NCBI GenBank assembly: GCA_048941265.1
Contig: JBHLNT010000139.1
Coordinates: forward strand, 1-11,024
Direction of reading: 5' to 3'
DNA length: 11,024 bases
From: Promethearchaeota archaeon
GTDB lineage: Archaea; Asgardarchaeota; Lokiarchaeia; Sigyniarchaeales; SOKP01
Both the position numbers and the translations under genes were made by a program. Every line of letters begins with the position of its first letter. The first letter of the stretch is position 1. The notes below the pieces were generated by a model. It saw only the letters and a list, made by a program, of their open reading frames with translations. It made no database searches and was not told the DNA's origin. Shown here one piece after another: positions 206 to 8,827 of the stretch.

Positions 206-249
206 TAAAAATTTTTTTTTTTAATAATATAATGGCGCCCACAGCGGGA

Positions 250-282
250 TTTTCATCATGTGTGGAGTGCACACAGCTTGAC
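250..282 (-). other. tRNA intron 2 (33 nt) at position 59/60 in the T-loop, canonical BHB motif
   Basis: The T-stem GCGGG/CCCGC encloses a 4-bp helix TTCA/TGAA with 3-nt bulges AA|G and AA|T. Inside are the stems TCA/TGA and TGTGTG/CACACA. Splicing restores the TTCAAAT loop. Confidence 0.92.
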
Positions 283-297
283 TTTGAACCCGCGTCG

Positions 298-325
298 TTC
301 TCCTCGATTGGTTTACCAGATCAAA
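298..325 (-). other. tRNA intron 1 (28 nt) at position 43/44, relaxed BHB (BHL-like) motif
   Basis: The 4-bp helix CTCC/GGAG is flanked by TG|T and AA|C, and the intron forms the hairpin TTGAT..TGG TAAA CCA..ATCGA. Cleaving after the second bulge nucleotide on each side restores TCCTG-CGAC exactly. Confidence 0.85.
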
Positions 326-555
326 CAGGAGTGACAGTCCCGAATGCTAGACCGAGCTACACTATGTGGGCGGAAAAGTGAAAGATCAAAAAATTATGTA
401 ACAAAAGGAGTAATTAAAAACTTAAAAATTTTATTCTAACTCGAAAATTTAAGCAAGTTTTAAAGTAAAAGTTTAATTCTTTTTTAGTTTTAATTTATAA
501 TGACATATTTATTTGATACATACTTTAAATTAATCTTTTAAAAGACGTAAAGAAA

Positions 556-5833: not shown

Positions 5834-8827
5834 TTATTTATTTTTCTTTATACCAATTTTATCTTGAACTTGTTTTAAATGGCGTTCATAGTGTTGACGT
5901 AAAAGAATTTCATCCTCGAGTCTTTTCTGTAATTCTCTAATTTCACTATGTAAATAAGTCACAACATCTTTTTTAAAAGGATCAAATACTGTTACTTTTC
6001 CTAAGAACTCTTTAGCGGCTTCACCATATTCCTCGTTGAATTTAGAGTTAACTGCTTCTAATACCTCGGAAATTTCCATAGTTCCCCTTACCGAAATAAA
6101 TGCCATGAAATAACTTGTGCCCTCTAAAATTCTTCTATGGACTTCTTTATCATTTACAACTGTACTATAATCTGTCTGACTATTGAATATGGGCTGATAT
6201 TCGTGTGAAGTTCCGGATGTTTCTCTTGCAAAATTCCTTATTGCAGTTAGGAAACCGCCAATGAGAGCAGAATCCCTTATCATGCCCTCTTCAACGAAAA
6301 TTTTGAATTCATTCCCCAACACTTCATTAAATCTAAAATCTGTAACCTCTACCATTGTAGTTCCCTGTTCAGAGTGTATAACTAGTATCCAATAAATTCC
6401 AGCAATTTCAGAGATCTGTTTTTGGATGAGGGAGATATTTTCTTCTGTAGCTGCTAACCTCGTTTTAAGTGCTACGAGTTCCGAATCTAATGCTCTTTGA
6501 GCCCTTACTCGCCTTCTCGATAAGGTCATATATACCCCAAAAATACTCATAGCGACTATAGCAAGAATAAGTAATAGCAGTAACGGCCAATTTTCTTCTA
6601 ACCATGAAAGTTCTTTCTTTTCGGATTTCGCTCCTACGGCTTTAATGGTTATTATTCGTTCCACTTCATAGAAAGGACTTACTAAACGATAAGTCACAAT
6701 ATGATCCCCTTCATCAAGCTTAAGCGTAATTATACCAGAAGATATATCATTTGCTGTTAAATTTACAGTTCTGAATAGTTGGCCATCTTTAAAGATTTCT
6801 AATGTCATGTTTTCGCGATTTCCTGTAAAGTTCCCATTTTCTAATGACCAACTGATATCGAAATTCTCATCCTCATCTACTTCATCATTATAATCTAATC
6901 CTATATCAAGTTGTTTTTTCTCAACTACGACATCGAAGGAAGTACTGCCATTATAATATTCAGAATCTATGGTTAAGTTAATATTATAATTACCTGGTAA
7001 AGTTGTATTACTCATCGGACCTGAAATCGTGAGTGATTGAACAACTGGTAAAGGTTTACCATCTGGACCTGGCCAAGGCATGTCTACTTCTATTTCCCCG
7101 GTATCTAAATTTGTAAATGTGACATTTACAAAAACTGGATGTCTTAAAAAAAGTTCATAGTAAGGCGGTTCACTTATAGCTACGACAAAATTAATAGTAA
7201 TAGAAAAAGTTTCTTCTATAGTAAAAACTTTATCCGGTGGTGTGATTTGGGGATAAAAATAAACATTTCTTTTAAATAAATTAAATTGAGTTATATTTGT
7301 CGATAAAGTATAGCCTTGCTTTTCTGCCCTAAAAGTAATATTATATCTTCCAGGCGTTATTAAAACCTCTGTTAAATCTATCATAGTATAGTATAGAGGT
7401 ATAAAGGATCCAATATCTGCAACATATAAAGGCCCATAACCTAATTCTCCACCATACACATCAAATTCATAAGTTACACTTGCATCCGGTATAACTGATT
7501 TGTTTAGAATTTCGCCTGGTGATAAACCATCTGGATGAGCTGAATACCATTCGTTAAGATCGATATCAACAAAACCAGTAAGTACAAATAGTTCAGAAAA
7601 TGCCGATGTATCCATAGAAAATCCCACGAGTACTGCCCGTTTATGAAATAAAATTTGCCGAGATCTTATACCAAATTGAGTAAGAGAATTATTCGTCAAT
7701 GTGATATTAAGGATTCCAATTCCACCTGTAGCATTCTTTTCCATGATATAATTGAAGAATACCATCTCATCTTTAATCACATTCAATGTCTTGTTCGATA
7801 CATTACCATCAACATCCCTTATTCGAATATCCAATTTCCCAGTCATTCTACACTTAACATATAGTTGTAGTTCATTGGAACCTGTTGCGTACGTTAAGTT
7901 ATCATTATAGGATATGATAGAAACGAGATTAGGTGTTTGAAGTTCAATTTTATACTCCCAAAATGATTCATTTATAAAAATATTAGTGTTATCTTTGGTA
8001 TAATTTAAAGGTGCCCAATACTGCCCATCATAACCTTGGACACTTCTTATAGTAAAATTTTCTAACTCTTCTATTGTAACACTTGCATTATAGTAGCCTA
8101 AAATATACCAAGAGAGGGAATTCAATCTGAAATAATTTATTTCCCATATAATCTCGTCTGATTGAGTATTCTCGTTGGTAGGTTTAAAATAAGTTATAAG
8201 ATCACGTTGTAATATTCTTCTAAATCTTATTGTCGCATTATATATAAGATCTCTTCCATCATAACTATATGCTATTTTAAAAGCGCCTGGTAATGATTTG
8301 TTTATATAAAGATATTGGTAGCAAGTTCCTTCTCCTAAAATTCCCGTATCTTTCACTGGTGCAACATTAACCCATCCTTGGGGAGTACCATTATATACCT
8401 GTAGATACATCCAACTAAAATCACTCGGATTTAATTTAATTTTCGTATCCCGATTTGACAGATCTGTAATATTTAATTCCACTAATACATAATAACCATA
8501 GACATCCCACTGCAACATATTATTTGCTAAAGCCCCTCCTAAAGTGGAATTATAATTTTCATAAAACCACTCTCGATTCCATTCTTCATTTAAATTAGCT
8601 TCACAAGAAAAATTATGATTTTGATGTTCTTCTGATATATCAGCTGTTTTTGGTCCCTCACGATCAGTGGATATTTCCTTAGTTAGATCTTTTTTTGATT
8701 GATTATCTATTTTTATTTGATCATCTTTTAGATTATAATTGTTGTTAGCTACTGGAATATGAATAAGAAATGAAGTAAATATGATAATCAATAATATCGA
8801 AAATAGTAGTTTGTTTTTTTCATTCAA
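5834..8827 (-). CDS. Large single-pass membrane (glyco)protein: signal anchor, beta-rich ectodomain, TM, coiled coil, longin-like domain, coiled coil
   Basis: An N-terminal hydrophobic segment follows KNK. The TM at about aa 747-769 is followed by RRRVR. I counted about 27 N-x-S/T sequons before the TM and 1 after it. The cytoplasmic part contains IYWILVIHSEQG...DSALIGGFLTAIRNFARE. The start is TTG with GGAG upstream. Confidence 0.8.
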   Translation of the reverse strand: MNEKNKLLFSILLIIIFTSFLIHIPVANNNYNLKDDQIKIDNQSKKDLTKEISTDREGPKTADISEEHQNHNFSCEANLNEEWNREWFYENYNSTLGGALANNMLQWDVYGYYVLVELNITDLSNRDTKIKLNPSDFSWMYLQVYNGTPQGWVNVAPVKDTGILGEGTCYQYLYINKSLPGAFKIAYSYDGRDLIYNATIRFRRILQRDLITYFKPTNENTQSDEIIWEINYFRLNSLSWYILGYYNASVTIEELENFTIRSVQGYDGQYWAPLNYTKDNTNIFINESFWEYKIELQTPNLVSIISYNDNLTYATGSNELQLYVKCRMTGKLDIRIRDVDGNVSNKTLNVIKDEMVFFNYIMEKNATGGIGILNITLTNNSLTQFGIRSRQILFHKRAVLVGFSMDTSAFSELFVLTGFVDIDLNEWYSAHPDGLSPGEILNKSVIPDASVTYEFDVYGGELGYGPLYVADIGSFIPLYYTMIDLTEVLITPGRYNITFRAEKQGYTLSTNITQFNLFKRNVYFYPQITPPDKVFTIEETFSITINFVVAISEPPYYELFLRHPVFVNVTFTNLDTGEIEVDMPWPGPDGKPLPVVQSLTISGPMSNTTLPGNYNINLTIDSEYYNGSTSFDVVVEKKQLDIGLDYNDEVDEDENFDISWSLENGNFTGNRENMTLEIFKDGQLFRTVNLTANDISSGIITLKLDEGDHIVTYRLVSPFYEVERIITIKAVGAKSEKKELSWLEENWPLLLLLILAIVAMSIFGVYMTLSRRRVRAQRALDSELVALKTRLAATEENISLIQKQISEIAGIYWILVIHSEQGTTMVEVTDFRFNEVLGNEFKIFVEEGMIRDSALIGGFLTAIRNFARETSGTSHEYQPIFNSQTDYSTVVNDKEVHRRILEGTSYFMAFISVRGTMEISEVLEAVNSKFNEEYGEAAKEFLGKVTVFDPFKKDVVTYLHSEIRELQKRLEDEILLRQHYERHLKQVQDKIGIKKNK

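Follow-up and report, generated by a model that had tools for sequence, protein, structure and literature searches.

Introns at non-canonical positions, and several per gene, in the tRNA genes of Crenarchaeota, especially Thermoproteales, were reportedly described by Marck and Grosjean in 2003, by Sugahara in 2007 and 2008, and by Fujishima in 2010. The accessible part of a later review presents non-canonical and multiple introns of the bulge-helix-bulge (BHB) type as classic features of the Crenarchaeota and lists 59/60 among their sites; in the cut rule given there, a 4-bp helix lies between two 3-nt bulges on opposite strands, and in the canonical intron the first two anticodon bases form part of the helix, so that the cut falls after the second bulge base (Yoshihisa 2014, PMC4090602). 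Closer to the present case are the Asgard archaea, in which 92-95% of tRNA genes were found to be interrupted and over half to carry several introns, according to the available part of that report (Valentin-Alvarado et al. 2024, PMC11291895). A preprint surveying 90 Asgard genomes, likewise available in part, reported that in its three focal families 30% of the inserts escape tRNAscan-SE, inferred by reconstruction that gains had recurred, found BHB enrichment, counted two EndA paralogues in 44/60 genomes and, in the portion available, gave no general arrival route for the introns (Goswami et al. 2026, bioRxiv 10.64898/2026.10.13.758758). A two-subunit (alpha-beta)2 EndA has been reported for Asgard archaea, and the accessible text of the same work places relaxed motifs within reach of (alpha-beta)2 enzymes with an L1 loop (Kaneta/Hirata et al. 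2018, PMC5829648).

The locus considered here lies in the window, by which we mean the whole 11,024-nt stretch of DNA that was analysed. There, at 371-233 on the minus strand, lies a tRNA-Asp(GTC) gene of 139 nt whose three exons are separated by two introns. The gene is a reliable instance of a pattern known from Asgard archaea, not of a new one. We are confident that it is a real tRNA-Asp gene whose two archaeal introns are spliced by proteins of the ordinary EndA/RtcB pathway.

Gene structure and splice junctions

The features of the locus, in window coordinates, are as follows.

233..371, minus strand: whole tRNA-Asp(GTC) gene, with CCA encoded at 233-235; its spliced product is called by ARAGORN
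391..400, minus strand: TATA-like, A+T-rich sequence, read by eye, that precedes the mature 5' end by 20-29 nt; possibly an archaeal promoter element
326..371, minus strand: exon 1, tRNA positions 1-43, with the acceptor 5' strand, D arm and anticodon arm (ARAGORN and orthologue alignment)
333-335, minus strand: anticodon GTC, within exon 1
298..325, minus strand: intron 1, 28 nt, at site 43/44 between anticodon stem and variable region; lacking at exactly these bounds in L008 and many orthologues
283..297, minus strand: exon 2, positions 44-59, with the 4-nt variable region, T stem 5' strand and T loop 54-59
250..282, minus strand: intron 2, 33 nt, at site 59/60 in the T loop (spliced alignment, orthologue occupancy and covariation)
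233..249, minus strand: exon 3, positions 60-76, with T60, T stem 3' strand, acceptor 3' strand, G73 and CCA
297..331, minus strand: intron 1 motif, a relaxed BHB
244..293, minus strand: intron 2 motif, a canonical hBHBh' with the T stem (289-293/244-248) as outer helix

Removal of 298-325 (28 nt) and 250-282 (33 nt) by script left a 78-nt sequence that ARAGORN called as tRNA-Asp(gtc), with a 7-bp acceptor stem, a 4-bp D stem including G10-U25, 5-bp anticodon and T stems, a 7-nt anticodon loop, a 4-nt variable region, G73 and an encoded CCA. The product has what identifies a tRNA-Asp(GUC), namely the anticodon GUC in a loop of 7 nt closed by a 5-bp stem, G73 as discriminator base, and standard D and T arms. 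It also has both C38 and G10-U25, which we take to be Asp identity elements in yeast. The D loop contains three extra bases, so that gene positions 46 and 61 correspond to tRNA positions 43 and 59, respectively; because of these extra bases and the 4-nt variable region, the site labels 43/44 and 59/60 are correct. The CCA is encoded here and in many orthologues, though not in all (it is missing, for example, from L004, L005, L011 and L013), and its presence varies among close relatives.

The placement of the two junctions comes from related genes. A DNA search of 40 related genomes and the window's own gave matches in 25/41. Among these, the same-family genome L008 has an intronless gene that is identical at 77/78 bases to the predicted spliced product, is called as tRNA-Asp by ARAGORN, and scores 60.1 bits against the Rfam model RF00005, for which the cut-off is 29. 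Because this intronless gene matches the product at 77/78 bases, both junctions are fixed without use of the splicing motif; moreover, no slid boundary yields the same product as the intronless alleles with a 4-nt variable region. Spliced alignment showed the 43/44 intron alone in L003, both introns in L002, and the 59/60 intron alone in many genes, while other genes in this first set of relatives have introns at 15/16, 20b/21 or 53/54. Intronless, singly interrupted and doubly interrupted alleles in relatives therefore constitute motif-independent proof of two non-canonical junctions. A sequence-only reading of the window had proposed a minus-strand tRNA-Asp(GTC) with encoded CCA, interrupted by introns of 28 and 33 nt at 43/44 and 59/60, neither of them at the canonical 37/38; the identity, the bounds of both introns and the assignment of the sites are all borne out by the ARAGORN call on the spliced 78 nt, the intronless orthologue and the D-loop and variable-region count.

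A second sample came from a scan for the 19-nt anticodon arm, with degeneracy allowed at two positions, in a set that contained a single genome of each species; it gave 97 stretches; pooled, the two samples comprised 123 loci and 89 distinct gene sequences. After removal of the aligned inserts, 80/89 distinct sequences were called as tRNA-Asp(gtc) by ARAGORN, the 9/89 failures comprising sequences matched by chance in unrelated genomes, loci that were truncated, and a gene whose intron lies beyond the aligned range. The 80 distinct orthologues carry no intron in 6 cases, one in 54, two in 16 and three in 4; site 43/44 is occupied in 14/80 and 59/60 in 41/80, with both occupied in 7 genes, counts that describe this sample rather than frequencies, the sample having been selected for exact identity to the anticodon arm of this gene and consisting of relatives that are not independent of one another. 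Introns were aligned at 11 positions (15/16, 16/17, 17/17a, 20a/20b, 20b/21, 43/44, 48/49, 53/54, 56/57, 58/59 and 59/60), some of which are probably register variants of neighbouring sites, and a further intron lies at about 8/9 in the full-length alignment (L053, L058). The pattern differs from genome to genome even inside the window's own genus.

The interrupted gene is also present in independently obtained DNA. Four public DNA runs belonging to three studies supplied contigs for comparison with positions 100-520. In run X5, which belongs to a study other than that of the best-matching runs, a 214-nt contig spans 208-421 with two differences, and runs X1 and X2 contain error-free contigs over 100-353 and over 332-520 or 342-520. 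Both introns thus exist in the DNA of a second study. In runs X1-X3 the summed contig depth on exon 1 (326-371) reaches hundreds to thousands, as against 4-12 in the flanks, contigs of foreign populations break at the exon ends 326 and 365-371, and some contigs have about 31 other letters at 348/349, a D-loop intron. To judge from these contigs, many co-occurring relatives seem to share exon 1 but not the introns or the flanks.

The host was taken to be probably an Asgard archaeon in the sequence-only reading, and this agrees with the anticodon-arm matches, in which, among the 80 titles listed of 97, all but 7 are Asgard phyla or an uncultured archaeon. The Asgard matches are labelled Promethearchaeota or Promethearchaeia, with a few Thor-, Hermod-, Hod- or Odinarchaeota, and a same-genus relative has a tRNA-Asp gene identical to one from a Promethearchaeota archaeon. 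Promethearchaeota is a phylum of the kingdom Promethearchaeati, which we take to be the Asgard group. One genome labelled as an actinobacterium (L109) has a typical Asgard tRNA-Asp gene with a 59/60 intron, and its contig is probably mis-binned; other matches with bacterial labels (L034, L074, L077 and similar) are chance matches that give no tRNA.

Elsewhere in the window, which has a G+C content of 27-36%, there is an intronless tRNA-Arg(TCG) at 1775-1849. At E <= 0.001, Pfam assigned no family to a 997-aa open frame at 5834-8827 on the minus strand. The genes around it are of ordinary kinds: SCP2, an MCP signalling domain, two TIM barrels like xylose isomerase, a protein of the creatininase family and a PLP-dependent enzyme.

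Detection by standard tools and copy number

Standard scanners had been said to miss genes of this kind often, and the raw locus behaves in this way. ARAGORN made no call on the unspliced 139 nt and, when run over the whole genome with anticodon-loop introns allowed, again missed the gene; Rfam at gathering score gave no match to the locus in the raw sequence.

A separate, intact tRNA-Asp(GTC) was sought in the genome assembly (5.0 Mb, 361 contigs, 91% complete). Neither Rfam nor ARAGORN found a second tRNA-Asp in this 91%-complete assembly. With the spliced product as query, blastn-short hit nothing elsewhere in the genome except T-arm words held in common, and exon 1 had a 100% blastn-short match in its own genome only at 326..371. 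When the genome was scanned for GTC anticodon arms that have an intact T arm downstream, 0/38 arms qualified. The gene at 371-233 is the only tRNA-Asp(GUC) gene found in the 91%-complete assembly.

The locus is not alone in escaping these tools. On the whole genome Rfam gave only 22 tRNA matches, 13 of them 100-137 nt long, and tRNAs for Asp, Glu, Gln, His, Ile, Met, Pro, Tyr and Cys were all missing from the ARAGORN output, in which several genes had doubtful anticodons; much of this genome's tRNA set is probably hidden by introns. The tRNA-Asp gene is needed for the GAU and GAC codons yet is invisible to routine annotation, and annotation of the genome by the usual programs would list tRNA-Asp, in error, as missing.

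Splice motifs, enzymes and competing explanations

The bases around intron 2 form a complete motif, in which a central helix of TTCA (285-288) with TGAA (252-255), paired at 4/4 positions, separates the bulges AA^G (282-284) and AA^T (249-251); the outer helix is 5 bp long, and the 3-bp inner helix (279-281/256-258) is followed by a 6-bp hairpin. Around intron 1 the central helix is again complete, with CTCC (328-331, tRNA positions 38-41) paired to GGAG (300-303) at 4/4 positions, bulges TG^T (325-327) and AA^C (297-299), and a 5-bp inner helix (320-324/304-308). Its outer side has only a 3-bp pairing of GUC (333-335) with GAC (294-296), A37 (332) being unpaired opposite the 3' bulge, and the strict outer helix is 0 bp. 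The observed central and inner helices were reached by 0/20000 shuffled introns for intron 1 and by 7/20000 for intron 2. A BHB-class motif is by itself cheap in A+T-rich DNA (97/13442 boundary pairs qualify within 339 nt), and because the class alone is common, the weight rests on the coincidence of the motifs with independently fixed junctions. The two motifs use different bases and coexist in one fold, at -43.1 kcal/mol when enforced, against -52.0 kcal/mol for the unconstrained minimum-energy fold, which is without the central helices. Their absence there was not counted as evidence, because it is expected for bulged motifs that are recognised by proteins.

The motifs are conserved in the orthologues. 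All 14 orthologous 43/44 introns have 4/4 central pairs and the same bulge layout with unrelated inner sequences, and 13/14 fall in the canonical class; since the exon side of the motif never varies among the 14, covariation is uninformative for intron 1. Among the 41 introns at 59/60, 22 have 4/4 central pairs and 19 have 3/4. An ungapped alignment of 28/37 distinct 59/60 segments, those with a 30-nt intron, was scored against the motif and hairpin. In this alignment 87.7% of cells were paired, compared with 73.8% in shuffles (0/500 as high), there were 62 double-change cells, compared with 19.2 in shuffles, and compensatory changes occurred in 9/9 intron-hairpin pairs; slid-partner controls were 26-60% paired. 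The two inserts thus have the properties of BHB introns, in that their removal restores a cloverleaf, each junction has a 4-bp helix and 3-nt bulges with a flanking helix, and the structure, rather than the sequence, is conserved, the 43/44 site being only partly informative on this last point.

Group I or group II self-splicing introns were considered and rejected, as the inserts are 28 and 33 nt long and a ribozyme core takes hundreds of bases; an Rfam E-value scan of 150-450 gave the tRNA model only, with no ribozyme model. A split or permuted tRNA gene was likewise rejected, the three exons being collinear inside 139 nt.

The genome encodes enzymes suited to such introns. Two genes with an EndA domain are present, at L031 1453-2058 (minus strand) and L032 1219-1815 (plus strand). 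The closest match of the 201-aa protein is the Aeropyrum pernix catalytic subunit (3p1z_B, E 1.8e-37), to which it aligns without gaps across the KPR loop stretch and with the Tyr, His and Lys kept. For the 198-aa protein the best match is M. jannaschii EndA (1a79, E 7.5e-26), whose Tyr and His are replaced in it by Phe and Ser. Those Tyr and His positions of M. jannaschii EndA are presumably catalytic residues. On this comparison the 201-aa protein would be catalytic and the 198-aa protein a non-catalytic paralogue, which fits a two-subunit (alpha-beta)2 enzyme. RtcB is also present (569 bits). Judged from its genes, then, the genome encodes an RNA ligase and an EndA predicted to be able to cut relaxed or non-canonical motifs.

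From the gene structure, motifs and enzyme genes we infer how transcription, cleavage and ligation would proceed and in what order. Transcription of the minus strand would give a precursor of at least 139 nt containing both introns, each of which would form a bulge-helix-bulge motif with the adjoining exon bases. For intron 2, the outer helix would be the T stem, and T-loop bases 54-57 would supply a strand of the 4-bp central helix; for intron 1, bases 38-41 would pair with the 3' part of the intron, temporarily displacing part of the pairing of the anticodon stem 3' strand. The (alpha-beta)2 endonuclease would cut each 3-nt bulge behind its second base, at the bonds 325/326, 297/298, 282/283 and 249/250, and the three exons would then be joined by RtcB into a 78-nt tRNA with encoded CCA.

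Of the other ways to read the locus, one accepts both inserts as real and supposes that intron 1 is handled unlike a standard BHB intron, with shifted cuts, with dependence on a helper factor or on the earlier excision of intron 2, or with inefficient removal. The weak outer side of this intron, with its strict outer helix of 0 and unpaired A37, speaks for such an exception, as does the figure in the accessible part of the 2026 preprint that only about 20-21% of the anticodon-stem and variable-region insertions missed by tRNAscan-SE have the canonical motif (bioRxiv 10.64898/2026.10.13.758758). Against it are the 14/14 orthologous introns with complete central pairing and a shared bulge layout (13/14 of canonical class) and the intronless alleles, which hold the product to a 4-nt variable region that no slid boundary reproduces; relaxed motifs are, moreover, said in the available part of the 2018 work to be within reach of (alpha-beta)2 enzymes with an L1 loop (PMC5829648). 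We consider such special handling improbable. A more radical possibility, that the locus is a decaying pseudogene whose inserts are never removed while a working tRNA-Asp lies on unassembled DNA, draws on the state of the assembly (91% complete, in 361 contigs) and on a search for RNA runs that contain positions 1-2000 of the window, which gave none. It is difficult to reconcile with exons that form a perfect fold and agree with an intronless orthologue at 77/78 bases, with the same interrupted architecture kept in many genomes alongside compensatory intron changes, and with the failure of Rfam, ARAGORN, blastn-short and the arm scan to find another copy in the assembly; we hold it to be very improbable.

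A reading with a single intron must also be weighed, in which a variable-region insert is followed by a T arm and acceptor 3' strand taken from inside intron 2. Rfam in E-value mode does report such a tRNA on the minus strand at 268-371 (25.4 bits, E 0.0028), and ARAGORN gave a poorer, 77-nt tRNA-Asp when only intron 1 was removed (with only intron 2 removed, it found nothing). These false single-intron readings arise because intron 2 resembles its own 3' exon: bases 2-16 of the intron (250-282) are identical to the exon at 233-249 in 11/15 positions. The Rfam score is, however, below the 29-bit cut-off, the T and acceptor stems of the alternative contain non-standard pairs, and there is no CCA. 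The resemblance itself is not significant (p = 0.058 against the downstream sequence and 0.013 against the 3' exon alone, before correction for 37 tests) and is absent from orthologous introns, and it is the two-intron product that matches the intronless orthologue. The single-intron reading has next to no chance of being correct, and a gene with two introns processed by EndA and RtcB is the explanation that we adopt.

Origin of the introns and comparison with known systems

No copies of intron 1 or intron 2 were found elsewhere in the genome, where blastn-short gave only 12-15-nt chance-level matches, the best of them 14-15 nt long (E >= 0.06). Origin of intron 1 by local duplication was rejected, as it has no similarity to its flanks (p = 0.87 to 1.0). 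For intron 2 the same origin was not upheld either, the value of 0.013 cited above being the best of 37 and a reversed-exon control giving 5/37 at p < 0.05. In two other Asgard genomes (L064 and L090), on the other hand, the tRNA-Asp gene has a 30-nt T-loop intron that duplicates in tandem, in degenerate form, the 25-30 bases that come next, comprising the 3' part of the T loop, the T stem 3' strand, the acceptor 3' strand, CCA and the trailer. The local alignment scores are 32 and 28, with 0/2000 shuffles as high in each case. The intron was aligned at 56/57 and is slidable to 59/60; the copy has a hairpin, with compensatory differences between the two genomes, and its BHB is weak, with either all G-U central pairs or 3/4. 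From its sequence, this looks like the birth of an intron by local duplication. It is tempting to go further and to see the tRNA-Asp gene as a hotspot of intron turnover in which some T-loop introns come from tandem duplication of the 3' end, with intron 2 of the window as a faded product of this process, an idea that we put forward only tentatively and consider rather unlikely. If true, it would make duplication an arrival route for Asgard tRNA introns, a point left open in the accessible part of the 2026 preprint (bioRxiv 10.64898/2026.10.13.758758).

The sequence-only reading had described multi-intron, non-canonical tRNAs as best known from Thermoproteales. That they belong mainly there no longer holds, since they have been published for Asgard archaea, as the available parts of two sources show (PMC11291895; 10.64898/2026.10.13.758758). 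The likeness to the Crenarchaeota, especially the Thermoproteales, covers, in the accessible part of the review, a 4-bp helix with two 3-nt bulges, sites 53/54, 56/57 and 59/60, up to three introns per gene, and a broad-specificity heteromeric EndA (PMC4090602). Site 43/44 is not among the example positions in that part of the review, where the list ends in 'etc.' The Thermoproteales are another phylum, and intron families there are copied between tRNA genes ('intron transposition'), whereas no second copy was found here. Nucleomorphs and the red alga Cyanidioschyzon merolae are also similar in having D- and T-arm introns, several per gene, which are BHB-dependent in C. merolae, according to the same partial source (PMC4090602). 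Unlike the present locus, those are eukaryotic nuclear or nucleomorph genes served by a four-subunit endonuclease.

The closest counterparts are the Asgard genes. As far as the published cases are documented in the accessible text, they share with this locus several short introns per gene, non-canonical sites that include the T arm and the anticodon-stem/variable region, BHB-type boundaries, a tendency to be missed by standard annotators, a background of (alpha-beta)2 EndA, and presence or absence that varies between close relatives and points to repeated gain or loss (PMC11291895; 10.64898/2026.10.13.758758). They differ in that the published cases, in the parts available, centre on Atabeyarchaeia, Freyarchaeia/Jordiarchaeia and related families, whereas this genome is of a Promethearchaeota lineage, of the kind grouped in the preprint as 'other Asgard families' with fewer introns; Lokiarchaeia/Promethearchaeia are named 0 times in the main text of the preprint as accessed (bioRxiv 10.64898/2026.10.13.758758). 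The tRNA-Asp locus leaves the known mechanism of tRNA splicing unchanged, and with it the pattern published for Asgard archaea comes to include a Promethearchaeota (Loki-type) family.
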